From the IMG/VR virus record IMGVR_UViG_2529292723_000011: a stretch of DNA of 43,489 bases; one strand, written 5' to 3'. This document shows, piece after piece, positions 1,222 through 43,489 of this stretch; the stretch's first letter is position 1; every line of letters starts with the position of its first letter. Position numbers and translations under genes: made by a program. A model generated the notes under the pieces. That model made no database searches, was not told where the DNA came from, and worked only from the letters and a program-made list of their open reading frames with translations. This DNA comes from a virus. Taxonomy: Duplodnaviria; Heunggongvirae; Uroviricota; Caudoviricetes.

Positions 1222-1268
1222 TTTTACACCTCAGTTGGACGATGTTGAAATTTGCTGCTTTGAGGCCA

Positions 1269-1487: not shown

Positions 1488-1585
1488 CTTCCATTAATCC
1501 CTGAATTGTTGGTTAATACGCTTGAGGATGAATGCGAACAATAAAAAAGGAGCCTGTAGCTCCCTGATGATTTTGCTTTTCATGT

Positions 1586-1900: not shown

Positions 1901-2435
1901 GAATCCTTGAGCCGAACGCCATCAACTCTCCACGATCAACAGTCGTAAAGTGGCAGTGTGTACGGGGGTATGGGTGCCAGATAATGAGCATCGAGCCTTT
2001 ATTATTTCCACTGACGGGTTTCTCAGTGAGTGGGTTAATAAATGCCAGTCGTCCTGCCGTGATGAATCTGACCTCACTGGCGGTTTGTATCGCTTCATGA
2101 AACCATCCGACAGATGTGTCAGCAGGCAATAACATTACACATCCCACACTACTGAATTTGTTTTCAGTGGCTGCCTTTTTCACAAAAGGGGAAATATTGC
2201 TGTATGGTGGATTCAACCAGACATAACCAGAGGCATATCCCATTGCTTCAGGCCATGAAGTGGTTAATGTGTTCTGCTCCTGTGAGATAAAAAGCCGACA
2301 TAGTCGGTTTTTTTCGCTGGCGGCAGCATCAAGTTGAAAAACGAACTCTGCATTAAGCGCAGCAAAAATCTCTGGTGGTGTGCGCCAGCTGTCGCGATGT
2401 TCGGCAGGAGTATTGCTTCCGGTGAAATCAGTCAT
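1878..2435 (-). CDS. Phage DNA N6-adenine methyltransferase (Dam-like)
   Basis: 185 aa containing the NPPY (DPPY-class) catalytic motif in ...YVWLNPPYSNISPF...; typical position in lambdoid early-left operons. Confidence 0.8.
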   Translation of the reverse strand: MTDFTGSNTPAEHRDSWRTPPEIFAALNAEFVFQLDAAASEKNRLCRLFISQEQNTLTTSWPEAMGYASGYVWLNPPYSNISPFVKKAATENKFSSVGCVMLLPADTSVGWFHEAIQTASEVRFITAGRLAFINPLTEKPVSGNNKGSMLIIWHPYPRTHCHFTTVDRGELMAFGSRILARREAA

Positions 2436-2589
2436 ACAGCCCCCGTTTATTATTTATCTCCTCAGCCAGCCGCTGTGCTTTCAGGGGATTTCGGATAACA
2501 GAAAGGCCGGGAAATACCCAGCCTCGCTTTGTAACGGAGTAGACGAAAGTGATCGTGCCTACCCGGATATTATCGTGAGGATGCTTCAT
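2428..2589 (-). CDS. Small hypothetical protein (53 aa), below the ORF-track size cutoff
   Basis: Hand translation of the minus strand: ATG at 2589-2587 gives [53 protein letters not shown], stop at 2428-2430. GGGGAG lies about 9 nt upstream; start overlaps the exo stop (ATGA) and the stop overlaps the methyltransferase start. Confidence 0.35.
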
Positions 2590-3266
2590 CGCCATTGCTC
2601 CCCAAATGCAAAACCAATTTCAGCCAGTGCCTCGTCCATTTTTTCGATGAACTCCGGCACCATCTCGTCAAAACTCGCCATGTACTTTTCATCCCGCTCA
2701 ACCACGACATAATGCAGGCCTTCACGCTTCATACGCGGGTCATAGTTGGCAAAGTACCAGGCATCTTTTCGCGTCACCCACATGCTGTACTGCACCTGGG
2801 CCATGTAAGCCGACTTTATGGCCTCGAAACCCCCGAGCCGGAACTTCATGAAATCCCGGGAGGTAAACGGGCATTTCAGCTCAAGGCCATTGCCGTCACT
2901 GCATAAACCATCGGGAGAGCAGGCGGTGCGCATACTTTCGTCGCGATAGATGATCGGGGATTCAATAACATTTACGCCGGAAGTGAACTCAAACAGGGTT
3001 CTGGCGTCGTTCTCGTACTGTTTTCCCCAGGCCAGCGCTTTAGCGTTAACTTCCGGAGCCACACCGGTGCAAACCTCAGCCAGCAGGGTGTGGAAGTAGG
3101 ACATTTTCATGTCAGGCCACTTCTTTCCTGATCGGGGCTTTGCTATCACGTTGTGAACTTCTGAAGCGGTGATGACGCCGAGCCGTAATTTGTGCCATGC
3201 ATCATCCCCCTGTTCGACAGCTCTCACGTCGATCCCGGTACGCTGCAGGATAATGTCCGGTGTCAT
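2586..3266 (-). CDS. exo: Lambda exonuclease (Red alpha), 226 aa
   Basis: [54 protein letters not shown]... is near-identical to lambda Exo as recalled. Confidence 0.95.
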
Positions 3267-4048
3267 GCTGCCACCTTCTGCTCAGTGGCTTTCTGTTTCA
3301 GGAATCCAAGAGCTTTCACTGCTTCGGCCTGTGTCAGTTCTGACGATGCGCGAATGTCGCGGCGAAATATCTGGGAACAGAGCGGCAATAAGTCGTCATC
3401 CCATGTTTTATCCAGGGCAATCAGCAGAGTGTTAATCTCCTGCATGGTTTCATCGTTAACCGGAGTGATGTCGCGTTCCGGCTGACGTTCTGCAGTGTAT
3501 GCGGTATTTTCGACAATGCGCTCGGCTTCATCCTTGTCATAGATACCAGCAAATCCGAAGGCGAGACGGGCACACTGAATCATGGCTTTATGCCGTAACA
3601 TCCGTTTGGGATGCGACTGCCACGGCCCCGTGATTTCTCTGCCTTCGCGGGTTTTGAATGGTTCGCGGCGGCATTCATCCATCCACTCGGTAACGCAGAT
3701 CGGATGATTGCGGTCTTTGCGGTAAATCCGGCATGTGCAGGATTCGTTGTCCTGTTCAAAGTCCATGCCGTCAAACTGCTGGTTTTCGTTGATGATGCGG
3801 GACCAGCCATCAACGCCCACCACCGGAACGATGCCGTTCTGCTTATCGGGGAAGGCGTAAATTTCTTTCGTCCACGGATTAAGGCCGTACTGGTTGGCGA
3901 CGATCAACAATGCGATGAACTGCGCATCGCTGGCATCACCTTTAAATGCCGTCTGGCGAAGAGTGGTGATCAGTTCCTGTGGGTCGACAGAATCCATGCC
4001 GACACGTTCAGCCAGCTTCCCAGCCAGCGTTGCGAGTGCAGTACTCAT
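3263..4048 (-). CDS. bet: Lambda Bet (Red beta) single-strand annealing protein, 261 aa
   Basis: [66 protein letters not shown]... matches lambda Bet; start overlaps exo. Confidence 0.95.
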
Positions 4049-4053
4049 TCGTT

Positions 4054-4350
4054 TTATACCTCTGAATCAATATCAACCTGGTGGTGAGCAATGGTTTCAA
4101 CCATGTACTGGATGTGTTCTGCCATGCGCTCCTGAAACTCAACATCGTCATCAAACGCACGGGTAATGGCTTTTTTGCTGGCCCCGTGGCGTTGCAAATG
4201 ATCGATGCATAGCGATTCAAACAGGTGCTGGGGCAGGCCTTTTTCCATGTCGTCTGCCAGTTCTGCCTCTTTCTCTTCACGGGCGATCTGCTGGTAGTGA
4301 CGCGCCCAGCTCTGAGCCTCAAGACGATCCTGAATGTAATAAGCGTTCAT
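4054..4350 (-). CDS. gam: Gam, RecBCD inhibitor (98-aa short form)
   Basis: [60 protein letters not shown]... matches the lambda Gam core. Confidence 0.9.
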
Positions 4351-4425
4351 GGCTGAACTCCTGAAAATGGCTGTGAAAAAATCGCCCGCGGAATGCCAGG
4401 CTGATTCGGAAAACAGGAAAGGGGA

Positions 4426-4716
4426 TTAGTGATTCAGACCGTTGCCGCGTCCGTCGAGAAAAACTTCCACGAGCAAGTCACGGGTATAAGTGCGCTCAAT
4501 GCCGCGATGCAGATAAAGTCGTCCGCGTAAATTAGCTGATGCAGTCCAGGTACCATCTTTGCGTTTGACCAGCATTCCTGGCATGACCGCACCGCGATTA
4601 ACGGTCTGCGTTCCGTAATGTTGATGAACCATAAAAACTCCTGCCCGTAAGCTGGGCTGCTGAACATATAAAGACTTCTGCGCGTATTCAGGCGGTGGAT
4701 GGCCGCCGGTTGTCAT
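4426..4716 (-). CDS. Hypothetical protein (96 aa), first gene leftward of the putative pL/OL region (lambda N position)
   Basis: ORF with GAGGCGG about 7 nt upstream of the start; no arginine-rich N-like motif; function not recognised. An overlapping 77-aa alternative frame (4434-4667) has a poorer start context. Confidence 0.35.
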   Translation of the reverse strand: MTTGGHPPPEYAQKSLYVQQPSLRAGVFMVHQHYGTQTVNRGAVMPGMLVKRKDGTWTASANLRGRLYLHRGIERTYTRDLLVEVFLDGRGNGLNH

Positions 4717-4899
4717 AACTAAGCCGCCTCGTTGAAGCGACTAAGGTATGAAATGTTGAGTTGATTTCAGCTGGTCACACCGACGTTCACGCGTCCGTTT
4801 CATCCCTCGCACTCCCCGAAGCCTGCTGAAATTCAAGCTGCGGATCTAAGCGGTCATCGCAACGGTGAATCAGGTAGTTGCCGTATCGTTGTGTTGTTG

Positions 4900-4990
4900 C
4901 GATGAACTTATTTAAAACTATAGTTGTTTTATCGTCAACAACAAAAGTTGTTTTATTGGTTGTTTTAGATATAACTGGTTGTATTTAGGA
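4900..4990 (-). promoter_or_regulatory. Putative OL/pL operator-promoter region
   Basis: AT-rich block with palindromes AACAACaaaaGTTGTT and AAAACTATAGTTGTTTT sharing the GTTGTT/AACAAC half-site with the cI-cro intergenic region; lies between the terminator of the 287-aa gene and the leftward early genes. Confidence 0.4.
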
Positions 4991-5075
4991 TGGATTTATT
5001 TTGTGACTTGCATCGCACAGCGATAACTGAAGCGAGGTCGTGGTGGTTTTTTGAACGGTTTGTGTGATGAGGGGA

Positions 5076-5105
5076 GGCAAAAGAAAACCCGGCACGACGG
5101 CCGGG
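5076..5105 (-). terminator. Rho-independent terminator immediately after the 287-aa gene
   Basis: Minus-strand reading CCCGGC-cgtcgt-GCCGGG followed by TTTTCTTTT, starting 5 nt after the stop codon at 5110-5112. Confidence 0.6.
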
Positions 5106-5109
5106 GAAA

Positions 5110-5973
5110 TCATTTCGCATCTACAATAAATAACCTGTTTATCTGGCCTTTTTTAACAGTAGCCTTTGCGGTTATAGTGAATACTGCAGATGGATCACCT
5201 TTGGTTGATATATATGCACTAAGAGCTCTAATATACGGGTTATTCTTCTTTCCTGCAGCTGGATCGCTAATTTCAGCAGTGATTCTCTTTTTTGAGTCAT
5301 CACCATCTAAAATTATTTTAGCTGTCATATTTTGTGCATCAAATTCTGTAAGAAAAGCACGATACTCACGAAGACCGAGAACTTCATCATCATCAAGCCT
5401 ATCAATTTCAGCTTTATCTCTCTCGTTAACTTTTAGAAGGCAGCCGTCAACATTTGTTGCAACACTTATCTGATCGCAAGTATTACCAATAGGTGATACT
5501 GCCTGCCTTACAGAGGGGCGAAGCTCTACAGCCATTCGGTCAATCAAAGAGATCAACTTATCAATGGTTCCAGCATCCTTGTTTCCTAGTGCCTCTATGG
5601 CCTTTTCAAGTGACTGCTGCAAAGCTTTCATTTCATCTTTCTTGTTAGAATTTCTCGCAAAAATATATTGTAGTATTGCGCCAAGTATAGTTGCGGCGAT
5701 CCCCGAGAACAACTGGTTCTGAGTGGCGAAGTTAAGAACTGCTTCAAGAGTAAAGCAGTTAGCTTTTGCTTCGCGTGCGTAAACCTTAACTTCCTGATAA
5801 TTAATGTATTTACTATATTTTTGTGTAACAGAGAAAGAAGCTGCTGTTGAGAGAACTTTAGAAAAACCCTTTAGGGATTCTCCTAGGCAGTTCAAATCTA
5901 TTTCATGATTTAAAGCATCTTTTCCGTCATACCTAAGAGAGATTTTTATATCCTGTAAAGCGTCACAATCCAT
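5110..5973 (-). CDS. Protein of unknown function (287 aa) in the Rex-equivalent position downstream of cI; candidate superinfection-exclusion or abortive-infection factor
   Basis: Start 67 bp after the cI stop on the same strand, with GAGAG upstream; visibly AT-rich relative to flanks; contains a hydrophobic stretch [19 protein letters not shown]; no similarity to RexA/RexB/SieB as recalled. Confidence 0.6.
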
Positions 5974-6039
5974 AAATCGCTCTCGTCTAATTCTAATTAA
6001 ATTTACTATCCCCTAAACGACTCATCAGCACAGTACTGA

Positions 6040-6729
6040 TTATCCATGTTTCCTGTACGTCTGGGGCATGCTCCCAATAACCTTACCGAAGATGAACACC
6101 CGGTTCATCTCGTCTTTCTCGATCGGGTCCCACGGTGAGTAGCTCTTGTTATCAGAGATAACCAGCAGCTTATCCTTCATCATTTGCAGGCGCTTTACAT
6201 GGGCTGTGTCGTCGTACAGAAACGCATAGATACCATCACCGTCGAAAGATTTAACCGTGATATCAACGAACAGCAGATCCCCTGGTTCGATCGTTCCTGA
6301 CATGCTGTCACCACGCACGTTAATGATGCGGATATTTTCCGCCTTCCTACCATCGAACATGTGACGAGCATCGTCAAACGAGTACTCAACCGAGCGTAGA
6401 ACTTCTACAAACTCACGGTTGATGACTCCCGGCCCAGCACTGACTTCTATATCAAGAACGTCAATCTTGAAGTATTTGGAATGGCTGACAGTTGATTGTA
6501 TTGGTTGCACTGTACTGTCTGACATATTTCCAACGCCAGAAGATAACCATTCTGCGCGCACACCCAAAGCGTTCGCGATCTCCACGATTTTAGTTGTTTG
6601 ATTAGCTTTCCCTGTTTCGATTTTCTGAATAGCAGCCTGGCTAACCCCGACCAAATCCCCAAGCGCCTTTTGTGTAAGGCCTCGCGCTAATCTGGCTTCT
6701 TTAAGTCTTTCTGAGAGTGTTGTTTTCAT
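6040..6729 (-). CDS. cI: CI-like prophage repressor (HTH_XRE N-domain plus LexA/S24-type autocleavage C-domain); start taken at MKTTLSERL (track ORF extends to 6795)
   Basis: N-terminal LTQKALGDLVGVSQAAIQKIETGK helix-turn-helix; Ala-Gly cleavage-site candidate in EVSAGPG; GDSM serine and VKRL lysine motifs of the S24 peptidase fold; divergent from the cro-like gene. Confidence 0.85.
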   Translation of the reverse strand: MKTTLSERLKEARLARGLTQKALGDLVGVSQAAIQKIETGKANQTTKIVEIANALGVRAEWLSSGVGNMSDSTVQPIQSTVSHSKYFKIDVLDIEVSAGPGVINREFVEVLRSVEYSFDDARHMFDGRKAENIRIINVRGDSMSGTIEPGDLLFVDITVKSFDGDGIYAFLYDDTAHVKRLQMMKDKLLVISDNKSYSPWDPIEKDEMNRVFIFGKVIGSMPQTYRKHG

Positions 6730-6833
6730 AGTCCAAATGTACAACCAAGGTTTTATTCCATCAAACGAAAATGGTTGTTGACTAAAAACAACCATAGTTT
6801 TAATCTTGATTCAAATTAACCACGGAGGTTGTT
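6730..6833. promoter_or_regulatory. Putative OR/pRM/pR divergent operator-promoter region
   Basis: 104-bp intergenic between divergent cI and cro; contains the 25-bp palindrome ATGGTTGTTgactaaaAACAACCAT (6771-6795) and AACCAAGGTT; GGAGG RBS before cro. Confidence 0.6.
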
Positions 6834-7064
6834 ATGAACCCAGCTATCAAAACAGCGATCAATATCGTTGGTTCACAAAAGAAACTGGGCGCTGCTTGCG
6901 AAGTTTCACAGCAGGCCGTCTATAAGTGGCTTCACAACAAAGCAAAGGTATCCCCTGAACATGTCGGCAGCATTGTTACGGCTACTGGTGGAGTAGTGAA
7001 GGCATACCAGATTCGCCCGGATCTTCCGAAGTTGTTTCCACACACCGAAAAGAACGCAGCTTAA
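6834..7064 (+). CDS. cro: Cro-like HTH regulator (76 aa)
   Basis: Divergent from cI; HTH segment QKKLGAACEVSQQAVYKWL. Confidence 0.75.
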   Translation: MNPAIKTAINIVGSQKKLGAACEVSQQAVYKWLHNKAKVSPEHVGSIVTATGGVVKAYQIRPDLPKLFPHTEKNAA

Positions 7065-7133
7065 ATTTCCATTTCACGCTCTTTAACAATAAGCAATCAA
7101 CTTAACAGTCAATTCAAACTAAAGGAGTCAATT

Positions 7134-7673
7134 ATGCAACCACTTACATACCAACAGACTAGCGGATTTAGCCCGACTGCGGTGATAAATCGTTCTCAAA
7201 CAAAACAGGTGCCAGACCACGAAAAAATCCGTGATGCCGTCCGCGCCTGGTCGGCTGTAGATAATCAGGATGTCGTTGCCGCACTCATTGTGAATGAGTA
7301 TCGGGAGCAGGGCGACGGCACCATCGATTTCCCTGATGATGTCAGCCGTGCACGCCAGAAGCTGTTCCGCTTCCTCGATAACAAATTCGATTCTGAAAAA
7401 TACCGAAATAACGTGCGTGAACTGACCCCGGCAATTCTGGCGGTACTACCGCTGGAATATCGCGGTTACCTGGTTGAGCAGGATAGCTTCATGACTCGGC
7501 TGGCTGAAATGGAAAAGGAACTCAGTGAGGCAAAACAGGCTGTCATTCTCAACGCACCACGCCACCAGAAACTGAAGGAAATTAGTGAAGGTATTGTGTC
7601 GATGTTTCGTGTGGACCCGGATCTGGCTGGTCCATTGATGGCGATGGTTACCACCATGTTGGGGGCAATATGA
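7134..7673 (+). CDS. Putative CII-like lysogeny regulator (179 aa; family assignment uncertain)
   Basis: Position between cro and O where cII sits in lambdoid phages; longer than lambda CII, possibly the CP-933-type CII family; stop overlaps the O start (ATGA). Confidence 0.45.
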   Translation: MQPLTYQQTSGFSPTAVINRSQTKQVPDHEKIRDAVRAWSAVDNQDVVAALIVNEYREQGDGTIDFPDDVSRARQKLFRFLDNKFDSEKYRNNVRELTPAILAVLPLEYRGYLVEQDSFMTRLAEMEKELSEAKQAVILNAPRHQKLKEISEGIVSMFRVDPDLAGPLMAMVTTMLGAI

Positions 7674-8689
7674 CAGGCTCAGAAATGGCGAAAGCCGGTC
7701 TGCGGGAACAGAGCCGACTTTCAGGCGCAAATCGTAACGCACTCATTGCGGGAGGAATTATGGCAAACACTGCTGAGATATTCAATTTTCCAGTGCCGGA
7801 TGTGGCACAAAAGGAGCCGCGCGTGGCAGATCTCGATGATGGTTATACGCGCATTGCAAATGAGTTGCTGGAAGCTGTGATGCTGGCCGGATTAACACAG
7901 CACCAGCTTCTGGTCTTCCTGGCTGTCATGCGCAAAACATATGGCTTTAATAAAAAACTGGATTGGGTGAGCAACGAGCAACTTTCCGAATTGACCGGGA
8001 TATTGCCGCACAAGTGTTCTGCTGCAAAAAGCGTTCTGGTAAAGCGTGGGATTCTTATTCAGAGCGGGCGGAATACCGGCATTAATAATGTGGTCAGTGA
8101 ATGGTCAACATTACCCGAATCAGGTAAGAAAAATAAAGTTTACCTGAAAGAGGTAAATTTACCTGAATCAGGTAAAAAAAGTTTACCCAAATCAGGTAAA
8201 GACGTTTACCCGAATCAGGTAAACACAAAAGACAAACTAACAAAAGACAATATAAAACCTTATTCGTCCGAGAATTCTGGCGAATCCTCTGACCAGCCAG
8301 AAAACGACCTTCCTGTGGTGAAACCGGATGCTGCGATTCAGAGCGGCAGCAAGTGGGGGACAGCAGAAGACCTGACCGCCGCAGAGTGGATGTTTGACAT
8401 GGTGAAGACCATCGCGCCATCAGCCAGAAAACCGAATTTTGCAGGGTGGGCTAACGATATCCGCCTGATGCGTGAACGTGACGGACGTAACCACCGCGAC
8501 ATGTGCGTGCTGTTCCGCTGGGCATGCCAGGACAACTTCTGGTCCGGTAACGTGCTAAGTCCGGCCAAACTCCGCGACAAGTGGACCCAGCTCGAAATCA
8601 ACCGTAACAAGCAACAGGCAGGCGTGACAGCCAGCAAACCAAAACTCGACCTGACAAACACAGACTGGATTTACGGGGTTGATCTATGA
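7670..8689 (+). CDS. O: Replication initiator O (lambda O-like); start may instead be the internal MANTAEIFNF at 7760
   Basis: ...VADLDDGYTRIANELLEAVMLAGLTQHQLLVFLAVMRKTYGFNKKLDWVSNEQLSELTG... matches the lambda O N-terminal domain; iterons and AT-rich spacer lie inside the gene as in ori-lambda. Confidence 0.9.
   Translation: MTGSEMAKAGLREQSRLSGANRNALIAGGIMANTAEIFNFPVPDVAQKEPRVADLDDGYTRIANELLEAVMLAGLTQHQLLVFLAVMRKTYGFNKKLDWVSNEQLSELTGILPHKCSAAKSVLVKRGILIQSGRNTGINNVVSEWSTLPESGKKNKVYLKEVNLPESGKKSLPKSGKDVYPNQVNTKDKLTKDNIKPYSSENSGESSDQPENDLPVVKPDAAIQSGSKWGTAEDLTAAEWMFDMVKTIAPSARKPNFAGWANDIRLMRERDGRNHRDMCVLFRWACQDNFWSGNVLSPAKLRDKWTQLEINRNKQQAGVTASKPKLDLTNTDWIYGVDL
8111..8222 (+). repeat. ori iterons: five direct copies of about 17 bp, TTACC(C/T)(G/A)AA(T/A)(C/G)AGGTAA, followed by an AT-rich stretch (8223-8262)
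   Basis: Copies at 8111, 8140, 8159, 8183 and 8206, each an internal inverted repeat TTACC..GGTAA; within the O linker region as in lambda. Confidence 0.85.
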
Positions 8690-9408
8690 AAAACATCGCC
8701 GCACAGATGATTAACTTTGACCGTGAGCAGATGCGTCGGATCGCCAACAACATGCCGGAACAGTACGACGAAAAGCCGCAGGTACAGCAGGTAGCGCAGA
8801 TTATCAATGGTGTGTTCAGCCAGTTACTGGCAACTTTCCCGGCGAGCCTGGCTAACCGGGACCAGAACGAACTGAACGAAATCCGCCGCCAGTGGGTGCT
8901 GGCTTTCCGGGAAAACGGGATCGCCACAATGGAACAGGTTAACGCAGGAATGCGCGTAGCCCGTCGGCAGAATCGACCATTTCTGCCATCACCCGGGCAG
9001 TTTGTTGCATGGTGCCGGGAAGAAGCATCCGTTACCGCCGGGCTGCCAAACGTCAGCGAGCTGGTTGATATGGTTTACGAGTATTGCCGGAAGCGTGGCC
9101 TGTATCCGGACGCAGAGTCTTATCCATGGAAATCAAACGCGCACTACTGGTTGGTTACCAACCTGTACCAGAATATGCGGGCCAATGCGTTGACTGACTC
9201 GGAATTACGGCGCAAGGCTGCCGATGAACTTGCCCATATGACTGCGAGAATTAACCGTGGTGAGGCGATTCCCGAGCCAGTTAAACAGCTTCCGGTTATT
9301 GGTGGTAAGCCGCTATCCCGTATACAAGGATTGGCAAAGTTGGCTGAGATTCGCGAGAAGCACGGACTGAGAAGACGTAAACAATTAACGGGAGTGAAGC
9401 TAACCTGA
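8686..9408 (+). CDS. P: Replication protein P (DnaB helicase loader), 240 aa
   Basis: MKNIAAQMINFDREQMRRIANNMPEQYDEKPQVQQVAQIINGVFSQLLATFPASLANRDQNE... is near-identical to lambda P over most of its length; the C-terminal tail differs. Confidence 0.9.
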   Translation: MKNIAAQMINFDREQMRRIANNMPEQYDEKPQVQQVAQIINGVFSQLLATFPASLANRDQNELNEIRRQWVLAFRENGIATMEQVNAGMRVARRQNRPFLPSPGQFVAWCREEASVTAGLPNVSELVDMVYEYCRKRGLYPDAESYPWKSNAHYWLVTNLYQNMRANALTDSELRRKAADELAHMTARINRGEAIPEPVKQLPVIGGKPLSRIQGLAKLAEIREKHGLRRRKQLTGVKLT

Positions 9409-9753: not shown

Positions 9754-10722
9754 TTATTCAATTAACGGTACTTGTTTGTTGCAGAATACTAATATTGCAT
9801 CTTGAGTAAGTTTTTTATGCATATGCTTTAGCGGCTCAATGTTAGTCTCGTAACCGAAAGTAGCGAAAAGAGTTGGTTCTATAATGAAATTTTCTTCATA
9901 AGCTTTTAGATCAAATGCTCTCTTTGCAATTAATCTAACTGCTTTCTTTCTAATGCGTGAATTATATCTATTCTCTATGCTAAGTTTAGCCATGTTTTCA
10001 TCGATGTTGTTTTTTTGTTTTTTTAGTATAATTTGAATGTGATCATCATCAATTTGGCCATCTCTATATATATAATCAATGTCATAATTAAAATCAAAAA
10101 GCTGAGTGTCATTTACACCTTCAAGAAAAGGATTTGAAAATGGGCTCATGATCGGATCGAGTGATTTTTTATAAGTACTATTGCATTTAGTGCAGCTAGG
10201 AATTAAGTTAAATAAACTAAAGGAGATCAACGGATATTTGTACTTAGGTATGAAATGATCAAATGCTGGCCTGTAGCTAGTACCTGTATGGTCTTCTACT
10301 TGTTCAATTTCTTCACTGTTGCAATATGGGCATATGCTAATGTCTAAAAAACTGTTCAATTGATACGCTGTTTCTCTATCAATAAGTGAGTATTTAAATA
10401 TTTCAGAAATATTTTTAACCCATGATGGAAATAACTTAATGGTATTTTCCTTTAAAGGACCACCATTCTTGATACTTATAAGATTAAGAATCTTATCTCT
10501 TAAACTAGATAATTTTTGTGGTGAGAAATGTGTATTTAATATATCCTCAAGTATTAGGCTTTGTGTAGTTTGAGAGAAAGATGTGATTATTTTGATGGCA
10601 TGTGCTAGTTCATTATAAACTATTTTTTTGTTTTCTTTTGTTTTTAAAGGTAATTGTAGGTTTGTTAATGGTTGTAAATTTAAGTGCCTTAAAAAATAAT
10701 CAGGAGAATAGTACTCACACAC
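9754..10722 (-). CDS. HNH (His-Me finger) motif protein, 322 aa; putative nuclease effector of a two-gene ATPase plus HNH module (Septu PtuB-like)
   Basis: Motif ICPYCNSEE...FDHFIPKYKYP...NLIPSCTKCNSTYK (CxxC, DH, N, CxxC); AT-rich; co-directional downstream of the ATPase. The only available start is GTG at 10720-10722 with a weak RBS. Confidence 0.7.
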   Translation of the reverse strand: MCEYYSPDYFLRHLNLQPLTNLQLPLKTKENKKIVYNELAHAIKIITSFSQTTQSLILEDILNTHFSPQKLSSLRDKILNLISIKNGGPLKENTIKLFPSWVKNISEIFKYSLIDRETAYQLNSFLDISICPYCNSEEIEQVEDHTGTSYRPAFDHFIPKYKYPLISFSLFNLIPSCTKCNSTYKKSLDPIMSPFSNPFLEGVNDTQLFDFNYDIDYIYRDGQIDDDHIQIILKKQKNNIDENMAKLSIENRYNSRIRKKAVRLIAKRAFDLKAYEENFIIEPTLFATFGYETNIEPLKHMHKKLTQDAILVFCNKQVPLIE

Positions 10723-10955: not shown

Positions 10956-12743
10956 TCATTTCTCAAAAGAATCTGTTTTATCATTGTTTTTGTTTAACTT
11001 CAGATCAATAAGATTTATGAGAAGTTTATTTTTAATTTGTGATAGTATGGTTTTTTGATGTTTATTTAAATTACCGTCATCTGAGTTTTTTATTATTGAG
11101 TTTAGATAATTATGTGCGTGCTGTCCTATTGTAGCATCAATAAAAAAACCATTTATATATAATTCTGATATGGTTGCTCCGAAACCAAACTCTACTTTCT
11201 TAGTATAGGTTCCTTGATTATGATCTCTTTCAAGATATATTATATCTGATGGCAAAAAATCACTTGCGAGTATAGGGGAGTGAGTTGTAAATACTAATTG
11301 AATATTTTTACTTTGTTTATATCTTAATGTTAAATCTATAATTTCTGAAAAAATAACTCGTTGCCATTCAGGGTGTAGATATAAATCACACTCATCTAAT
11401 AATATTATAATATTTTTGCTGTTGCTATGTTCTATAGAATCATAAAGTTGATTGAAAAGGTTTAATTTTGCAAACTCTCCTGAACTAAGTGAATCCCAAC
11501 CATACTTAAATCGCGATGATACGCCATTTGGTAACCTATCAACTAATCTTATTAACTCCATAATCTGCTTTGGTTCTTCAACTGTGAAAGATAAACTATC
11601 AACTGGGTCTCTTGCTGTGTTTTCTAATATATCAGCTATATTACCTATAATGTCGGAGATATGTTCAGATAACATTTCTATTTTTGACTGAAATTTAACA
11701 TTAACGTTAAATTCATCTAAAGTCTCTAATATAGTTTTTGCTGGATCTTTTTCTTCAAGATACGCGCGACACAAGCAAAATAAATAAACAGTCTCACATA
11801 TGTCTTTAGGGATTTTTGATGTCTTGAGTAAATGCCATGTTATTGCAGGCAAAAGCATCAAGTAAATTATTTTGTGATATGAAAAGGTTGCGAGGAAATT
11901 TAATGATCTTTCTTTGTTAAAAATAATGCTAATAATAAAATCTTCATCGTAATCTATCCCATGATTGAGTATATCCACAAGTGAAATACCTAAAGAATCT
12001 AAATCACGTTCAATATATCTAGGGAGTTTATTGTTTTTAATTCTATCATTCAACGTATCAAAAAAGTATTCAATAGCTCCAAAAAGTCCTTTGTCACCAA
12101 TATCATTGTTTTTTATAATAGAATTTATTTTATATACTGGTGAGTTTTCTATTTCAAATTGAAATTTAGTATTAAGTCTTGATAAATTGTCTTTAGCCCA
12201 TGAACTGTGGTCTGAAAATGAAATTAATTGCTTGAGTAATTTCTTATTGCGTGTTTTACTGCCTTGCAAAAAATATGACAGTGATAAATCTTTAGAAATC
12301 GAATCGTTTTTTTTCTTTTTTTGTCCAACTAACATACTTTTGAGGTCGATTGTGTTATTTATCTTTATTAGATTGATTTTGTTTCTTCTAAAAAAATGTT
12401 CATTATTATCAATTAGTTCCGTTTGCATTTTGGATAATATTACAGGAGGTTTGCAATTGCTTGTGATAATTATAAGTTTATCATTTTCATTCCAGATGCT
12501 ATAACCGCTACCTTCAAAATCGTAAATAAAGCTACTAATGAAATCTAAAATTGATGACTTTCCAACACCATTTTTCCCTAAAATTAATGTACAGGGAATA
12601 TTGCTATAATAGTCACGACTTAAATCTTTCTTAGCAATTGTAAGGACGTTACCTTTATGGCTAAAGGTAAATTTACTTGAGGTGGGGAGGGACAGCTTAT
12701 TTAAACCTTTATAATTGTGGATATAAGTGTATATTAGTTCCAT
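10956..12743 (-). CDS. ABC/AAA_15-21-type ATPase, 595 aa; putative sensor/ATPase subunit (Septu PtuA-like)
   Basis: Walker A LILGKNGVGKSSILDF near the N-terminus; signature-like LSSGEF; Walker B IIILLDECDLYLHP; H-loop FTTHSP; very AT-rich; 520-bp AT-rich upstream leader (12744-13265). Confidence 0.8.
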   Translation of the reverse strand: MELIYTYIHNYKGLNKLSLPTSSKFTFSHKGNVLTIAKKDLSRDYYSNIPCTLILGKNGVGKSSILDFISSFIYDFEGSGYSIWNENDKLIIITSNCKPPVILSKMQTELIDNNEHFFRRNKINLIKINNTIDLKSMLVGQKKKKNDSISKDLSLSYFLQGSKTRNKKLLKQLISFSDHSSWAKDNLSRLNTKFQFEIENSPVYKINSIIKNNDIGDKGLFGAIEYFFDTLNDRIKNNKLPRYIERDLDSLGISLVDILNHGIDYDEDFIISIIFNKERSLNFLATFSYHKIIYLMLLPAITWHLLKTSKIPKDICETVYLFCLCRAYLEEKDPAKTILETLDEFNVNVKFQSKIEMLSEHISDIIGNIADILENTARDPVDSLSFTVEEPKQIMELIRLVDRLPNGVSSRFKYGWDSLSSGEFAKLNLFNQLYDSIEHSNSKNIIILLDECDLYLHPEWQRVIFSEIIDLTLRYKQSKNIQLVFTTHSPILASDFLPSDIIYLERDHNQGTYTKKVEFGFGATISELYINGFFIDATIGQHAHNYLNSIIKNSDDGNLNKHQKTILSQIKNKLLINLIDLKLNKNNDKTDSFEK

Positions 12744-15328: not shown

Positions 15329-16426
15329 TTAGAACTGGTAAACCAGACCTACAGCAACGATGTCATCAGTGCTTACACCGAGTGCTTTAGTGAAGTCATT
15401 TTTGTCAAGCAGGTTGATTTTGTAATCAACGAAAGTTGACATATTTTTGTTGAAGTAATAGGTGGCACCTACATCAACATATTTGACTAAGTCCTGATCG
15501 CCCCATACTCCAAGATCCTTACCTTTAGATTGCAGGTAAGCAACGGACGGACGCAGACCGAAATCGAACTGATATTGTGCAACAGCTTCGAAGTTTTGAG
15601 CTTTATTAGCAACGAAGTGATCAGCAAATACAGTCATATTCTGGGTTTCAGAATAGGTAGTGGCCAGGTAAATGTTGTTAGCGTCATATTTCAGACCTGC
15701 GGCCCAAACTTCTGCATTTTTACCGGAAGCAAATACTTCAGGAAGAACTTTCCCTGCATTAACTTGAGTGTCGGTACGATCAGATTTCGCATAAGTTGCA
15801 CCGATACCGAATCCTTCGTATTCATAGGTAGCAGAGAAACCGAAGCCATCACCGTTACCTTCGGTGTAGTTATCGAAATCGCTACGATCGTTTTTGCCTT
15901 GGTACTGAGCAGCAAAGTTCAGACCATCAACCAGGCCAAAGAAGTCGTTGTTACGATAGGTTGCAACACCAGTGGTGCGACCAGTCATGAACACATCTGT
16001 TTGGGTCCAGGTATCGCCACCGAATTCTGGCAGAACGTCAGTCCACGCACCGATGTCGTATGCTACACCGTAGTTACGGCCGTAATCGATGGAGCCGTAG
16101 TCACCGAATTTCAGGCCAGCGAAGGCAAGACGGGTTTTATCTTTGGAGGAACCTTGAGATTCAGCGCGGTTGCCTTTGAATTCATATTCCCACTGACCGA
16201 AACCAGTCAGTTGATCGTTGATTTGGGTTTCACCTTTGAAGCCAAGACGGGCATAAGTAGTATCACCATCATCTGCATCATTAGAGGAGAAGTAGTGCTT
16301 AGCATTAACTTTCCCGTACAGATCCAGCTTGTTACTGTCTTTATTATAAATTTCAGCTGCCTGAGCAGACATCGCCATCAGTACTGATGCAGCTACAGCA
16401 GAAATTGCCACTGTTAATTTTTTCAT
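15329..16426 (-). CDS. nmpC: Prophage-encoded outer-membrane porin (NmpC/Lc/OmpD-like), intact; start taken at MKKLTVAIS
   Basis: Signal peptide [23 protein letters not shown], porin-typical C-terminal F (…VGLVYQF), general-porin motifs; same position as nmpC in DLP12. Confidence 0.9.
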
Positions 16427-16998
16427 CGTGAGCCCTTTTTTTGAACTATTATTAAAAAATGATGTCACTGCGCGATAAATATTCATCTAATCAATATGAT
16501 TATTTCAAGATGTAAGTTTTGGTTTCTCGTTTGATTTGTGAAGTAGATCTCTATTTTTATCTGAACTTTTTTCTATCGAATCCTATTCATGGCTCTTGGC
16601 TGAATAAAAATAAATCTATTAGCCAATTTATATTAACGGTTGTTATTTATAAGTGCTCTATGATTTGAAGGTTCAATTTAAATCGGCTAAAAATAACACT
16701 GGAAATTATTTGTTGGTTATTTGTTGAGATTTGCTTATGTATTTGTAGTGGTGTTTTCAATACTCGGTAGCATTCTCGCAAATATCATTTAGTGGTTTAC
16801 GTACGTAAAAAATTGGTTATGCTGTTAAGAGTGGTTACTTCGTCACACAGCTTAAACCCGCCGTCGAGCGGGTTTTTCCATTTTTTGAGTCTCGATATTA
16901 GCTGATAACCCAATACCTGAGTTATTCACTGACTCCGAGTCTGTTACGTTTCGTAGTATTCCCTCAATTTACACCCGCTTTGTCTGCGAGGTGGGGTT

Positions 16999-34743: not shown

Positions 34744-38130
<3,387 letters not shown>

Positions 38131-38196
38131 ATTTTATAACCCAGAACGGGCGTCAGAAATGACGCCTTTTTTATTGCAGAAAAGCGAGAGGTAATT

Positions 38197-38796
38197 ATGC
38201 GTAAACTTTATGCCGCCATTTTGTCCGCAGCCATTTGTCTGGCCGTATCCGGTGCGCCTGCATGGGCGTCTGAACATCAGTCCACGCTGAGCGCGGGGTA
38301 TCTTCATGCCCGGACGAACGTTCCCGGCAGTGATGATCTGAACGGGATTAACGTGAAATACCGTTATGAGTTTACGGACACACTGGGGATGGTGACGTCG
38401 TTCAGCTATGCAGGAGACAAGAATCGCCAGCTGACCCGTTACAGCGATACCCGCTGGTATGAAGATTCCGTGCGTAACCGCTGGTTCAGCGTGATGGCGG
38501 GGCCGTCTGTACGCGTGAATGAATGGTTCAGCGCGTATGCGATGGCGGGTGTGGCTTACAGCCGTGTGTCGACTTTCTCCGGGGATTATCTCCGCGTAAC
38601 TGACAACAAGGGGAAAAAGCACGATGTGCTGACCGGAAGTGATGACGGTCGCCACAGCAACACGTCTCTGGCGTGGGGGGCTGGCGTGCAGTTTAACCCG
38701 ACCGAATCCGTGGCCATTGATGTCGCTTATGAAGGCTCCGGCAGTGGTGACTGGCGCACTGACGGGTTCATCGTGGGTGTTGGTTATAAATTCTGA
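38197..38796 (+). CDS. lom: Lom outer-membrane protein (Ail/Lom family)
   Basis: MRKLYAAILSAAICLAVSGAPAWASEHQSTLSAGYLHARTNVPGSDDLNGINVKYRYEF... matches lambda Lom; signal peptide and C-terminal F. Confidence 0.9.
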   Translation: MRKLYAAILSAAICLAVSGAPAWASEHQSTLSAGYLHARTNVPGSDDLNGINVKYRYEFTDTLGMVTSFSYAGDKNRQLTRYSDTRWYEDSVRNRWFSVMAGPSVRVNEWFSAYAMAGVAYSRVSTFSGDYLRVTDNKGKKHDVLTGSDDGRHSNTSLAWGAGVQFNPTESVAIDVAYEGSGSGDWRTDGFIVGVGYKF

Positions 38797-38860
38797 TTAG
38801 CCAGGTAACACAGTGTTATGACAGCCCGCCGGTTCAGGCGGGCTTTTTTGTGGGGTGAAT

Positions 38861-41818
38861 ATGGCAGTAAAGATTTCAGGTGTACTGAAAGACGGCACAG
38901 GAAAACCGGTACAGAACTGCACAATCCAGCTGAAAGCAAAACGTAACAGTACCACGGTGGTGGTGAACACGCTGGCCTCAGAAAATCCGGATGAAGCCGG
39001 GCGTTACAGCATGGACGTTGAGTACGGTCAGTACAGCGTTATTCTGTTGGTGGAAGGATTCCCGCCGTCACATGCCGGGACCATCACCGTGTATGAAGAT
39101 TCCCGACCCGGTACGCTGAATGATTTTCTCGGTGCCATGACGGAGGATGATGCCCGTCCGAGGCACTGCGCCGTTTTGACTGATGGTGGAAGAGGTGGCG
39201 CGTAACCGTCCGCGTGGCACAGAACACGGCAGCCGCGAAGAAGTCAGCCAGGATGCCGCACATCAGCCCGTGAGGCGGCAACCCTGCGACTGATGCTGCA
39301 GGCTCAGCACGGCGCCAGCACGTCAGCCGGACAGGCCGCGTCGTCGGCTCAGTCAGCGTCTTCCAGCGCAGGAACGGCATCACAAAGGCCAGTGAAGCAG
39401 CGAAAAGTGCTGCCGCTGCAGAGTCCTCAAAAAGGCGGCGGCCACCAGTGCCGGTGCGGCGAAAACGTCAGAAACGAATGCGCAGCGTCACAACAATCAG
39501 CAGCCACTTCTGCATCCACCGCGACCACGAAAGCGTCAGAAGCTGCCACCTCAGCCCGGGATGCGGCGGCCTCAAAAGAGGCAGCGAAATCATCAGAAAC
39601 GAACGCATCCTCGAGCGCCAGTAGCGCAGCTTCCTCGGCAACGGCGGCAGGAAATTCCGCGAAGGCGGCAAAAACGTCCGAGACGAACGCCAGGTCTTCT
39701 GAGACGGCAGCGGGACAGAGCGCCTCAGCTGCGGCAGGCTCAAAAACAGCGGCTGCGTCGTCTGCCAGTGCCGCGTCAACAAGTGCCGGGCAGGCCTCAG
39801 CCAGTGCCACCGCCGCCGGAAAATCGGCAGAAAGTGCCGCATCGTCTGCTTCAACAGCCACAACGAAGGCTGGCGAAGCCACTGAACAGGCCAGCGCAGC
39901 AGCGAGGTCTGCTTCTGCAGCAAAAACCTCTGAAACAAATGCAAAGACTTCAGCAGACAATGCTGCTTCCTCTAAGGCGGCAGCCGCATCGTCCGCTGGT
40001 TCAGCGGCGTCATCGGCATCATCTGCGTCTGCTTCAAAAGATGAGGCGACCAGACAAGCGTCAGCAGCGAAAGGTAGTGCCACGACAGCAACAACGAAAG
40101 CATCAGAGGCGGCAGGCAGTGCGACGGCTGCATCTCAGAGCAAAGTTGCTGCTGAATCCGCGGCAACGCGTGCCGAAACAGCGGCAAAACGGGCAGAGGA
40201 TATTGCTGATGCCGTATCTCTGGAAGATGCGAGCACGACGAAAAAAGGTGTGGTTCAGCTCAGCAGTGCGACCAACAGCACTTCCGAGTCACTGGCGGCA
40301 ACACCAAAGGCAGTAAAGGCAGCATATGACCTTGCTAACGCAAAATATACCGCTCAGGACGCAACGACGGCACGAAAAGGGATAGTTCAGCTCAGTAGCG
40401 CCACTAACAGCACATCTGAAACGCTGGCTGCGACGCCAAAAGCTGTTAAGGCGGTAATGGATGAAACGAACAAGAAAGCGCCCTTAAATAGTCCTGCACT
40501 GACCGGAACGCCAACAACGCCAACTGCGCCAAAAGGGACTAATAATACTCAGATCGCAAGCACGGCTTATGTGATGGCCGCGATTGCCGCACTTGTAGAC
40601 TCGTCGCCTGACGCACTGAATACGTTGAACGAGTTAGCGGCGGCGCTGGGAAACGACCCGAATTTTGCGACCACCATGACTAAAGCGCTTGCGGGTAAGC
40701 AACCGAAAGATGCCACCCTGACGGCGCTGGCCGGGCTTGCTACTGCGGCAGACAAGTTTCCGTATTTTACGGGGAATGATGTCGCCAGCCTGGCAACTCT
40801 GACAAAAGTCGGGCGGGATATTCTTGCGAAATCGACCGTTGCCGCTGTTATCGAATACCTCGGTTTACAGGAAACGGTAAATCAGGCTTCTGGCGCATTA
40901 CAGAAAAAACAGAACGGCGCAGATATTCCAGGAAAAGATACCTTCACCAAAAATATTGGTGCCTGCCGCGCATATAGCGCATGGCTGAATATTGGTGGCG
41001 ATAGTCAGACCTGGACAACCGCACAATTCATTTCGTGGCTGGAGAGTCAGGGGGCATTTAACCATCCTTACTGGATGTGCAAAGGCTCATGGGCTTATGC
41101 AAACAATAAGGTCATTACAGATACAGGTTGCGGAAATATTTGTCTTGCAGGTGCTGTGGTGGAAGTTATTGGCACTCGCGGCGCAATGACCATACGCGTT
41201 ACTACGCCGAGTACATCCAGCGGTGGCGGAATTACTAACGCTCAATTCACCTATATTAATCATGGTGATGCTTATGCTCCTGGCTGGCGACGAGACTACA
41301 ACACGAAAAACCAGCAGCCTGCATTTGCTTTAGGGCAAACAGGAAGCAGGGTTGCAAATGATAAAGCTGTTGGCTGGAACTGGAATAGCGGCGTTTATGA
41401 TGCAGATATCAGTGGCGCATCGACATTAATCCTCCACTTTAATATGAATGCGGGGAGTTGCCCTGCTGTACAGTTCCGCGTGAATTATAAAAACGGCGGT
41501 ATCTTTTATCGTTCAGCGCGTGATGGTTATGGCTTTGAAGCTAACTGGTCAGAGTTTTACACCACAACCCGCAAACCCTCTGCGGGGGATGTTGGTGCAT
41601 ATACGCAGGCAGAATGTAACTCAAGGTTTATTACAGGTATTCGCCTGGGCGGTCTGTCATCTGTTCAGACATGGAATGGTCCCGGCTGGTCTGACAGGTC
41701 AGGTTATGTCGTTACGGGTTCAGTTAACGGAAACCGTGATGAATTAATTGATACAACTCAGGCAAGGCCAATTCAGTATTGCATTAATGGAAGGTGGTAT
41801 AACGCGGGGAGTATTTAA
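38861..41818 (+). pseudogene. stf: Side tail fibre Stf, frame-disrupted between about 39180 and 39300 (N-part 38861-39205, remainder 39293-41818); its C-terminal variable part lies inside an invertible segment
   Basis: N-part MAVKISGVLKDGTGKPVQNCTIQLKAKRNSTTVVVNTLASENPDEAGRYSMDVEYGQYSVIL... matches lambda Stf; the second ORF carries the Ala/Ser-rich shaft and ...DPNFATTMTKALAGKQPKDATLTALAGL... conserved fibre region. Confidence 0.8.
40848..40873 (+). repeat. Gin/Cin/Pin-type inversion crossover site (gix-like) inside stf at the constant/variable boundary
   Basis: Reverse complement TTCCTGTAAACCGAGGTATTCGATAA closely resembles Mu gixL (TTCCTGTAAACCGAGGTTTTGGATAA, recalled from memory); it encodes ...IEYLGLQE... 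where such sites sit in Mu S and e14/Rac fibres. Confidence 0.7.
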
Positions 41819-41820
41819 TT

Positions 41821-42354
41821 ATGATGCACTTAAAAAACATTACTGCTGGCAACCCTAAAACAAAAGAGCAATACCAGCTAACGAAACAATTTAACATCAA
41901 ATGGCTTTATTCAGATGATGGAAAAAACTGGTATGAGGAACAAAAGAACTTTCAGCCTGATACGTTGAAAATGGTCTATGACCGTAACGGCGTTATTATT
42001 TGTATTGAAAAGGATGTTTCAGTAATTAATCCAGAAGGCGCAAGCGTCGTTGAATTACCTGATATTACAGCAAATCGCCGGGCTGATATTTCGGGTAAAT
42101 GGATGTTCAAAGATGGCGTAGTGATAAAGCGAACTTATACCGGGGAAGAGCAGAGGCAGCAGGCAGAGAATGAAAAGCAAAGCCTGTTGCAACTTGTCAG
42201 GGATAAAACCCAGTTATGGGACTCACAGCTACGGCTGGGCATCATTTCCGACGAGAGTAAACAAAAATTAACAGAGTGGATACTCTTTGCGCAGAAAGTC
42301 GAATCTACAGACACTTCCAGCCTGCCAGTAACATTTCCCGAACAACCTGAATGA
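41821..42354 (+). CDS. tfa: Tail fibre assembly chaperone Tfa (orientation A)
   Basis: [40 protein letters not shown]... Tfa family; directly follows stf. Confidence 0.85.
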   Translation: MMHLKNITAGNPKTKEQYQLTKQFNIKWLYSDDGKNWYEEQKNFQPDTLKMVYDRNGVIICIEKDVSVINPEGASVVELPDITANRRADISGKWMFKDGVVIKRTYTGEEQRQQAENEKQSLLQLVRDKTQLWDSQLRLGIISDESKQKLTEWILFAQKVESTDTSSLPVTFPEQPE

Positions 42355-42382
42355 GACAAGGCCCGATAGCGGGCCTTAATTT

Positions 42383-42910
42383 TTATTCAGGCTTTTGTGG
42401 CCATTCAGGATTTGCCGTATCCACACGGCTGACCAGAACACTGTAGCGTTCCCATGCTTCCAGTCGTGTGCGCTCCTCGTCTGTTGCCATATTCAGCCTG
42501 GCAGCGCGTTCCAGTGGCTGGATGACTGATTCAGTTTCGGAAAGCAATGCGGCCTTTTGTGATTCGGCCTGTTGTTGCTGTTCGTCTGCTGTATAAATCC
42601 GCTTAACCACAGTTCCGTCCTTAAACATCCACTTCCCTGAATCATCGGCACGACGATTGACTGTTATATCTGGAATCTCAACGACACTAAAGCCTTCGGG
42701 ATTAAGCGTTGAGGCATCTTTGGTTATGGCAACAATAATATTATTTTCGTCGTAAACAATCTTTATGGTGTCTTCCTGAAAGCTATTTACTTCCTCATAC
42801 CAGTTTTTACCGTCTTCTGTATATAACCAGATAACATCAAAATTCTTTGTTAGCTGATATTGCTCTTTTGTTTTTGGATTTCCTGACTTAATATTTTTTA
42901 AATGCTGCAT
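42383..42910 (-). CDS. tfa: Alternative tail fibre assembly chaperone Tfa' (inverted orientation)
   Basis: [40 protein letters not shown]... is a paralogue of the plus-strand tfa, arranged tail-to-tail with it. Confidence 0.85.
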
Positions 42911-42913
42911 AAT

Positions 42914-43489
42914 TTACACCTGTGCTACGTTATACCATGTGCCATTGATGTATTTTTGTATTGGTCTGAAGATGGCTTCATCATCGCCATCTACTTCACC
43001 AATGATTCTTAATCCGGTAATTGCGTGTCCGGCTTTTTCATAACGACCACCACGCGCCATCAATTGAACAACTCGCGTACCCAGGCGAACATCTTTTACA
43101 TAGCGTGAATCAAAATTCCCCCAGTTGCTGGGCTGTATCTGACCGTTAACAGAAAATATTACCGAGTTATCTGTATTTCGCTGGCTATAGAAATGCCATC
43201 CTGCCTCATCGCCTAACTCTGCAACTACTGGACGGGTTGAAGCACCCCATAAATTAAACGTTACATTCTTTGTGGAGGTGTTGGAGCTGGATAGCGAGAT
43301 TTTTTTACTATCACCTGCCTGAATGTTTTTAAAAGCAATAGCAACTCCATTCTGAAAGCGGAATACTCGCTGACTATTAGCGTAAACATCAAGAATACCG
43401 TCTCCATTCTGTTTAAATCCGGTATCATTATCACCAAGAACAATAGAGCTACCACCTAACGCATTCGTCGTACCAACTCCAAGGCTGCC
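42914..43489 (-). CDS. Alternative tail-fibre C-terminal variable segment (5' partial, runs off window end); missed by the ORF track because it has no start in the window
   Basis: Hand translation of the minus strand from 43489: GSLGVGTTNALGGSSIVLGDNDTGFKQNGDGILDVYANSQRVFRFQNG...RPIQKYINGTWYNVAQV, stop at 42914-42916. Its C-terminus parallels the plus-strand stf end ...IQYCINGRWYNAGSI. Confidence 0.8.
   Translation of the reverse strand, partial: GSLGVGTTNALGGSSIVLGDNDTGFKQNGDGILDVYANSQRVFRFQNGVAIAFKNIQAGDSKKISLSSSNTSTKNVTFNLWGASTRPVVAELGDEAGWHFYSQRNTDNSVIFSVNGQIQPSNWGNFDSRYVKDVRLGTRVVQLMARGGRYEKAGHAITGLRIIGEVDGDDEAIFRPIQKYINGTWYNVAQV

Follow-up and report, generated by a model that had tools for sequence, protein, structure and literature searches.

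Near the right end of a lambda-like prophage of E. coli, the side-fibre gene stf runs through a 26-bp sequence closely resembling a crossover site of phage Mu, and beyond it two chaperone genes face each other. Does this DNA form an invertible host-range switch, and, if so, by what enzyme could it be flipped? The window, by which we mean the whole stretch of DNA that was analysed, is the complete 43,489-bp draft contig AQDH01000065.1 (assembly GCA_000354955.1) of this prophage. The original prediction was of an invertible segment whose second site and invertase lie beyond the contig. We consider it very likely that 40848–43489 makes up the left ~2.64 kb of an invertible segment of ~2.93 kb, of the Mu G / P1–P7 C / e14 P kind and carried on a lambdoid stf, in which a fibre tip and its chaperone are swapped together to give two specificities. 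Its invertase is most likely a remnant, and flipping would then depend on an enzyme supplied in trans.

The 26-mer TTATCGAATACCTCGGTTTACAGGAA occurs once in the window, on the plus strand at 40848–40873, and no second copy was found in the 43,489 nt at three or fewer mismatches. It is built as a Din-type site is, from two imperfect inverted half-sites and a 2-bp core. In Mu (NC_000929), TTATCCAAAACCTCGGTTTACAGGAA contains both annotated G-segment boundaries, and on this basis the window site is identical at 24 of 26 positions to both Mu gix sites, the two differences both falling in the outer half-site; the annotated Mu G boundary is the central TC of the site. A chance likeness to gix is ruled out by shuffling of the window, which gave an expectation of 0 at three or fewer mismatches (0/100 shuffles), and by the 2.1 kb of Mu homology that continues beyond the site. 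The DNA homology to Mu, D108, and P88 begins exactly at 40848, and the stf frame passes without interruption across the site (...AAVIEYLGLQETVNQ...), which places it, as had been proposed, at the junction between the constant and variable parts of stf. An inverted-repeat scan of the window picked up a single pair (I1, 75%), in which the C-terminal ends of the two tips show weak similarity to each other. The site alone is nevertheless no proof of activity, because gene H of P2 carries a lone 25/26 copy, a fossil, at the same junction.

The genes around the site (Table 1) have the expected tail-to-tail layout, with stf and tfa on the plus strand facing tfa' and an alternative tip frame on the minus strand. 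In stf, the 114-aa product contains Pfam phage_tail_N, and Phage_fiber_2 matches the 841-aa ORF. The tip that is fused in the contig as assembled is of the Mu G(-) type, its amino acid sequence being 95.9% identical to that of Mu S'v and 97.5% identical to that of the P7 S C terminus. For the facing chaperone, amino acid identity is 93% to Mu U and 90% to P2 G. The alternative fibre segment that had been suspected on the minus strand is indeed an open frame, of which the first ~99 codons fall past the contig end; the fragment within the window matches the corresponding stretch of the 290-aa segment of the relative locus L001 at 100% identity, and the full homologous segment of the lambdoid relative L004 is 94% identical to residues 380–669 of P2 H. 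Pfam Gp34_trimer is found on a full-length relative of this tip, and the two tips share ~25% identity with each other. The hairpin between the chaperone genes is the single terminator-like match in 40700–43489. Promoter-like sites are not in excess within the segment (3 found versus 5.6 expected), which fits expression solely through fusion with the constant part.

Table 1. Features of the stf region and of the part of the segment contained in the window
Feature	Coordinates	Strand	Remarks
stf constant N-terminal part	38855..40860	+	as sequenced split: 38855-39205 + 39293-41818
gix-like crossover site ("left" site)	40848..40873	+	outer half TTATCGAATACC, centre TC, inner half GGTTTACAGGAA
variable fibre tip fused in frame, 318 aa	40862..41818	+	Mu S'v (G(-)) / P7 Sv type
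chaperone of expressed tip (tfa, Mu U' type)	41821..42354	+	Pfam Caudo_TAP E 1.1e-33; 94% aa identity to Mu U'
terminator-like GC-rich hairpin then T run	42358..42377	+	between the two convergent chaperone genes
tfa', second chaperone (Mu U / P2 G type), silent here	42383..42910	-	Pfam Caudo_TAP E 1.2e-34
alternative tip, C-terminal 191 codons (P2 H type)	42914..43489	-	stop-free frame to window edge

Because the window is a whole draft contig, position 43489 is an assembly end, and that the contig ends inside a gene is explained by the module being both repeated and invertible. The sequence is of draft quality. Alignment to the stf of TW10828 reveals twelve 1-bp deletions at 39160–39481 that interrupt the gene as sequenced, and J and K are likewise interrupted; 1-bp deletions are also seen at 35622–35821. 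If these lesions are real, no full fibre would be made in either orientation. No database record was found for the 841-aa stf ORF, and a 41-mer specific to the window, searched for as an exact pattern in viral contigs, gave no match. The lambdoid late operon around the module is otherwise complete, and the module is found at several attachment sites.

The arrangement is closely akin to known switches, as the original comparison with Mu G, P1 C, and e14 P had it. At the DNA level the window segment is 93.5% identical to the Mu G segment, 95.7% identical to P7 C over 2.2 kb, and 89.6% identical to P1 C. In Mu, whose G segment is inverted by Gin, and also in D108, SfMu, and P88, the site occupies the same position within the fibre gene, and Mu has the same convergent gene order, Sv–U–U'–S'v. 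The window differs from Mu in that its constant part is a lambda-type Stf rather than Sc, its alternative tip is of the P2 H type (94%, versus 47% to Mu Sv), and the invertase of the lambdoid lineage is reduced to 64 codons. The C segments of P1 and P7, with Cin, follow the same logic, a constant Sc being fused to alternative Sv or Sv', but the P7 homology begins about 45 bp inside the site, cix differs at 5 of 26 positions, and the P7 annotation gives its segment a greater length, 3,998 bp. By published description, the e14 P segment with Pin, and PinR and PinQ of Rac and Qin in K-12, are also alike, in that an stf–tfa module in lambdoid or defective prophages is inverted by a Gin-family invertase (PMC4272514, PMC12529663); the e14 segment differs in its length of 1.8 kb and in having kept an intact pin. 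P2 shares the alternative arm of the window (90.5% DNA identity) but has a single site and a single tip, lacks an invertase, and is fixed and non-invertible. Finally, P2-like prophages of ETEC and EPEC, for which phase variation has been reported (PMC4272514), carry the same segment in gene H at 99.4–99.9% DNA identity, with an intact invertase and in both orientations, although on a different backbone, where the fibre belongs to a contractile-tail baseplate rather than being a lambda side fibre.

What lies past the contig end can be read in relatives. We examined seven relative loci, five lambdoid and two P2-like; the three nearest lambdoid relatives are 97–98% identical across the common tail-end DNA. 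An inverted partner site had been predicted downstream, and TTATCTAAAACCTCGGTTTACAGGAA is present in inverted orientation in all seven loci. Its start is 286 bp beyond the equivalent of the window end in the three lambdoid relatives whose alignment is in register with the window. The left and partner sites have identical inner halves and the central TC in common. These two sites stand alone in every relative, which rules out a shufflon or a multi-site system of the Min type.

The prediction also called for a search for both orientations, and these occur in near-identical relatives, in both prophage types of strains ETEC-2264 and 90-9280. Between the P2-like prophages of the two strains, the flanks are 99.98% identical and a 2953-bp segment is inverted at 99.87% identity. 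In their lambdoid prophages at potB, the segment is inverted and the 4.7 kb of the right flank contain 0 mismatches. The breakpoints between the two strains fall within 40848–40886, at the site, and upon inversion the outer half-sites keep their place while the inner flanks are exchanged. The constant part can thus be joined to either tip, each with its own chaperone, and the fusions are annotated as intact in both orientations, with 989 aa for the unflipped stf homologue in 90-9280 and 961 aa for the flipped one in ETEC-2264. More broadly, the junction of the lambdoid constant part is flipped in 28 complete E. coli genomes (at least 80% coverage) and unflipped in 39.

The invertase that had been expected downstream was found in part of the relatives. 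A P2-like relative has an intact 195-aa protein with Pfam Resolvase and HTH_7 domains, 86% identical to Mu Gin, whose best PDB matches are DNA-invertase chains. In the lambdoid relatives, by contrast, the gene is a 64-codon remnant, in 5/5 loci examined and at three chromosomal attachment loci. The truncated copy retains nt 1–195, of which 187 are identical to gin. In Din-type systems a Fis-dependent recombinational enhancer acts in cis from the 5' part of the invertase gene; nt 19–86, the stretch annotated as the enhancer in P7 cin, are identical to Mu gin at 67 of 68 positions in the sequence of these relatives. The truncated module occurs in 531 of 5426 complete E. coli genomes (about 10%) and in 0 of 50,697 deposited phage records. 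As all five of the closest lambdoid relatives have the remnant, the switch is probably not autonomous.

Is such a switch still turned? It could be a frozen relic that flips no more, with a truncated invertase in a decaying prophage. The remnant in every lambdoid relative, the interruptions of J, K, and stf in the window, the lack of the truncated module from the phage records, and the P2 H fossil, which shows that such sites can linger, all fit this idea. Yet the lambdoid prophages of ETEC-2264 and 90-9280 have an identical 64-aa remnant (WP_001387651.1) within their mismatch-free right flank and differ, all the same, by a clean site-to-site inversion. Both orientations are also common among complete genomes, and the inner halves and central dinucleotides of the two sites, as well as the enhancer match, are preserved, so we regard a relic as unlikely. 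The opposite idea, that the partner site of this particular genome has an intact invertase gene behind it, just past the contig end, draws on the P2-like prophages, where the same segment is followed by the intact 195-aa enzyme, and on the SNPs in 42333–43031, at which the window matches the P2-like copy and not the lambdoid copies. But the truncated form is found in all five lambdoid relatives at three chromosomal loci, and in hundreds of complete genomes, and an autonomous switch thus seems distinctly improbable.

The same SNPs bear on a further possibility, that the genome also harbours a P2-like prophage with its own copy of the module, and that the last ~3.2 kb of the contig were taken from this second copy or represent a consensus of the two. 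The join would then have been made through the common 600-bp constant region, and the segment could be missing from the lambdoid stf of this strain. Positions 40243–43489 are 99.35% identical to the P2-like copy, the SNP pattern changes from lambdoid-like before 40321 to resembling the P2-like copy at 42333–43031, and the lambdoid and P2-like copies part 72–78 bp beyond the contig end, a likely cause of the break in what is a draft assembly. However, the join of lambdoid stf to the segment is also present in five complete genomes, which indicates that it is natural, and positions 40489, 40798, 40894, and 42023, deep in the common region, agree with at least two of three lambdoid copies in the comparison and in no case with L001. 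A chimeric assembly is, in our judgment, highly unlikely. Less probable still is that the flip has been domesticated to serve the bacterium, for example through a fibre-derived protein that blocks the adsorption of other phages. There is a precedent in StfE2 of e14 after inversion driven by PinQ (PMC12529663), a similar speculation has been made (PMC4272514), and the truncated module is widespread in genomes and absent from isolated phages. Nothing in the sequence points this way, however; both tips are 94–97% identical to working phage fibres, and the otherwise complete late operon and the several attachment sites are what one would expect of a mobile phage.

Thus, the segment is best read as a Gin/Cin/Pin-type host-range switch that is probably non-autonomous and flipped in trans. 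Its working would be as follows. A Gin-type serine invertase would bind 40848–40873 and the inverted partner site, whose predicted start is about 286 bp beyond position 43489; TTCCTGTAAACCGAGGTTTTAGATAA would lie between the alternative tip and the invertase gene or stump. By analogy with the biochemistry of Gin and Hin (PMC3575834, PMC3798978), the enzyme would cut both sites at the central TC, rotate the strands by 180 degrees, and religate them. The flip would replace the 318-aa tip of the Mu S'/P7 S type and its U'-type chaperone with the 290-aa tip of the P2 H type and its U/G-type chaperone. Transcription of either tip would start at the stf promoter and pass through the constant part, limiting expression to whichever tip is in the fused orientation. 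The fibres of Mu G(-) and P7 and the fibre of P2 have different receptor specificities, and from these three phages the outcome of the flip is predicted to be two receptor specificities.

The source of the enzyme is the less certain part of this scheme. The invertase adjacent to the segment in the lineage of the window is most likely the 64-codon remnant, which would still hold the match to the P7 cin enhancer, and flipping would then depend on an invertase supplied in trans. A candidate is the invertase, 86% identical to Gin, of a P2-like prophage that resides in the same cell and has the same segment. Inversion in trans by the invertase of another prophage has been documented for switches of the e14 kind (PMC4272514, PMC12529663), an example being the e14 P segment itself, which is inverted by PinQ from Qin (PMC12529663). 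For the present segment we infer trans action from one closely matched strain pair and from the orientation counts, that is, from comparison of sequences. We put at about even the chances that the lambdoid lineage maintains an orphan switch, with both sites, the enhancer match, and the stump, that is still flipped by the Gin/Pin-type invertase of another prophage.

In general terms, the segment is an ordinary member of a textbook family, save for the dead invertase remnant in its closest relatives. It closely copies the G module of Mu and the C module of P7, on a lambda-type side fibre, and matters little for basic biology, although it confirms that fibre cassettes move freely among Mu-like, P1-like, P2-like, and lambdoid phages. 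For annotators, it means that the minus-strand "hypothetical protein" belongs to a fibre gene, as its silent half. The conserved invertase stump is the one point deserving follow-up. If the proposal made here is true, the host range of one prophage would be set by the enzyme of another, and if flipping in trans holds, a common group of ETEC prophages would have a host range that depends on which prophages reside with them.

The segment that begins at 40848 is an invertible tail-fibre segment of the Mu G / P1 C / e14 P type, and the original prediction of such an arrangement was correct in kind. Its DNA is 93.5% identical to the Mu G segment, with the match beginning exactly at 40848, and it matches the C segments of P7 at 95.7% and of P1 at 89.6%; the stretch 42383–43482 matches P2 genes G and H at 90.5% DNA identity. 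The layout is the one first described, in which the variable end of the side tail fibre gene (stf) and a chaperone gene (tfa) on the plus strand face a second tfa and a second fibre tip on the minus strand. The two tips are only ~25% identical to each other. Promoter-like sites show no excess within the segment.

Features of the fibre segment and of the module beyond it in a relative (identities at the amino acid level)
Feature	Position	Strand	Basis	Closest relatives or content
26-mer crossover site TTATCGAATACCTCGGTTTACAGGAA	40848-40873	+		single occurrence in window
stf, variable end	ends 41818	+	ORF layout	fused tip, 318 aa: Mu S'v [G(-)] 95.9%; P7 Sv 97.5%
tfa	41821-42354	+	Pfam Caudo_TAP	Mu U' 94%
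Hairpin and T run	42358-42377			between the two convergent genes
Second tfa	42383-42910	-	Pfam Caudo_TAP	Mu U 93%; P2 G 90%
Alternative tip, stop-free frame of 191 codons	window edge to 42914	-	ORF scan	290 aa full-length in relatives: P2 H residues 380-669, 94% (measured in lambdoid relative L004)
Stump module	lambdoid relative L003, 13383-13800 (~286-700 bp past window end equivalent)			partner gix site, 64 codons of Gin-like invertase and stop, tfa C-terminal fragment

The crossover site also stands where it had been proposed, at the junction between the constant and variable parts of stf. As a reference we read the Mu site, TTATCCAAAACCTCGGTTTACAGGAA, off the annotated G-segment boundaries in NC_000929, both of which fall at position 13 of this sequence. 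The window site agrees with it at 24 of 26 positions, both mismatches lying in the outer half-site, and the stf frame stays open through it (...AAVIEYLGLQETVNQ...). The shuffled window gave no match to the 26-mer at three or fewer mismatches. Nevertheless, the site alone would be no proof of a switch, because P2 gene H keeps a lone 25/26 copy (2893–2918 of the P2 locus L012), at the junction where the alternative-tip homology starts, and P2 has neither a partner for it nor an invertase. This P2 copy is thus a relic left by the same exchange of cassettes. The argument for a switch comes instead from the convergent second cassette and from the relatives.

Two groups of relatives bear on the segment. 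The whole tail end is 97–98% identical to the lambdoid prophages of TW10828, 90-9280 and H10407, and the last 3 kb of the window are 99.4–99.9% identical to the P2-like prophage of ETEC 90-9280. Over the window's 191 codons, the alternative tip is 100% identical to the copy in the P2-like relative L001. Moreover, ~600 bp of "constant" fibre region (40243–40848 in the window, 5754–6359 in L001) are ~99% common to lambdoid stf and P2-like H, from which it follows that the cassette exchanged is larger than the invertible segment.

The partner site and invertase predicted to lie beyond the window fared differently. The inverted partner, TTATCTAAAACCTCGGTTTACAGGAA, is present in the P2-like prophage of 90-9280 and in all three lambdoid prophages. 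Where lambdoid relatives align in register with the window, its start lies 286 bp beyond the equivalent of 43489, just past the window, and in the relatives the segment measures 2,953 bp between outer edges. In the P2-like prophage the partner site is followed by an intact 195-aa protein with Resolvase and HTH_7 domains, 86% identical to Mu Gin and with DNA-invertase chains as its top PDB matches, but the invertase gene of the lambdoid prophages is cut down to 64 codons, with a stop at codon 65, downstream of which the sequence diverges from intact invertases and then continues into a tfa C-terminal fragment. This stump retains nucleotides 1–195, of which 187 are identical to gin; nucleotides 19–86 are identical to gin at 67 of 68 positions, and the recombinational enhancer of P7 cin is annotated over the same stretch. 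Five lambdoid relatives have the same stump, and between them they occupy three chromosomal attachment loci (potB, bioA/ybhB and ompW/yciE). A search at a threshold of at least 80% coverage located the module of partner site, stump and tfa tail in 531 of the 5426 complete E. coli genomes; 50,697 phage records yielded no match.

Both orientations are seen among the relatives. The P2-like prophages of ETEC-2264 and 90-9280 have flanks that are 99.98% identical and a 2,953-bp segment inverted at 99.87% identity; each flank has kept its outer half-site, and the stretches immediately inward of the sites have traded places, the outcome expected if strands are exchanged at the centre of the site. These strains also share a lambdoid prophage at potB, in which the right flank shows no mismatch over 4.7 kb and encodes the identical stump protein; here too the segment is inverted between the two strains. 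Intact annotated fusions are 989 aa when unflipped (the Mu S'/P7 S-type tip fused, as in the window) and 961 aa when flipped (the P2 H-type tip fused). Among complete genomes, 28 matched a flipped query, a synthetic junction of the lambdoid constant part with the alternative tip, at no less than 80% coverage, versus 39 for the unflipped junction. The stump is found next to segments in either orientation, and this is most simply read as inversion having continued after the invertase was lost, with an invertase therefore acting in trans. A candidate is the invertase of the P2-like prophage, resident in both ETEC-2264 and 90-9280. PinQ acting on the e14 segment is a demonstrated case of one prophage's invertase working on another's segment (PMC12529663). 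By analogy, such an enzyme would cut the sites and rotate the strands as established for Gin and Hin (PMC3575834, PMC3798978).

How far the sequence itself can be trusted has to be weighed here. The window, a lambdoid prophage (YqaJ-type exonuclease, RecT, cI-like repressor, replication protein O, large terminase, tape measure, L, K, I, J and lom), is the complete 43,489-bp draft contig AQDH01000065.1 (NCBI GCA_000354955.1), and at position 43489 it is thus the assembly that stops; the sequence was not cut there arbitrarily. Lambdoid and P2-like copies part 72–78 bp beyond it, which is probably why the assembly broke there. This divergence, together with SNPs that are lambdoid-like upstream of 40321 and like the P2-like copy in 42333–43031, leaves a small chance that the contig end is collapsed or chimeric. 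Relative to the relatives, stf is split by twelve single-base deletions (39160–39481), J by another twelve (35622–35821), and K is interrupted by one (33914). Most of the stf deletions recur in a sister draft contig, AQDO01000076.1, which covers 36570–40415, and none of the deletions in the three genes has a homopolymer context. They reflect either genuine decay or errors peculiar to that sequencing project; in the first case neither orientation would yield a complete fibre.

Elsewhere in the prophage, a minus-strand gene pair flanked by the replication genes and the late region (9754–10722 and 10956–12743) matches PDC-M62, a candidate defence system in PADLOC (E-values 3.5e-33 for B and 4e-44 for A), the A protein being a Septu/PARIS-like AAA_15/AAA_21 ATPase. 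A general porin (15329–16486, minus strand; Pfam Porin_1, E 1.2e-156) is likely the product of a lysogenic-conversion gene. Adjoining the cI-like repressor (6040–6795), a frequent site of exclusion genes in lambdoid phages, is a gene for a DUF7946+DUF7947 protein (5110–5973, minus strand) with a weak PADLOC match (PDC-S42, E 1.5e-4).

In kind, the segment is textbook. Lambdoid examples are already known in e14 and phage LLS (PMC12315714), as are examples in P2-like prophages (PMC4272514). The refinement over the first reading is that the switch is probably non-autonomous, with what is probably a dead stump in place of the adjacent invertase.
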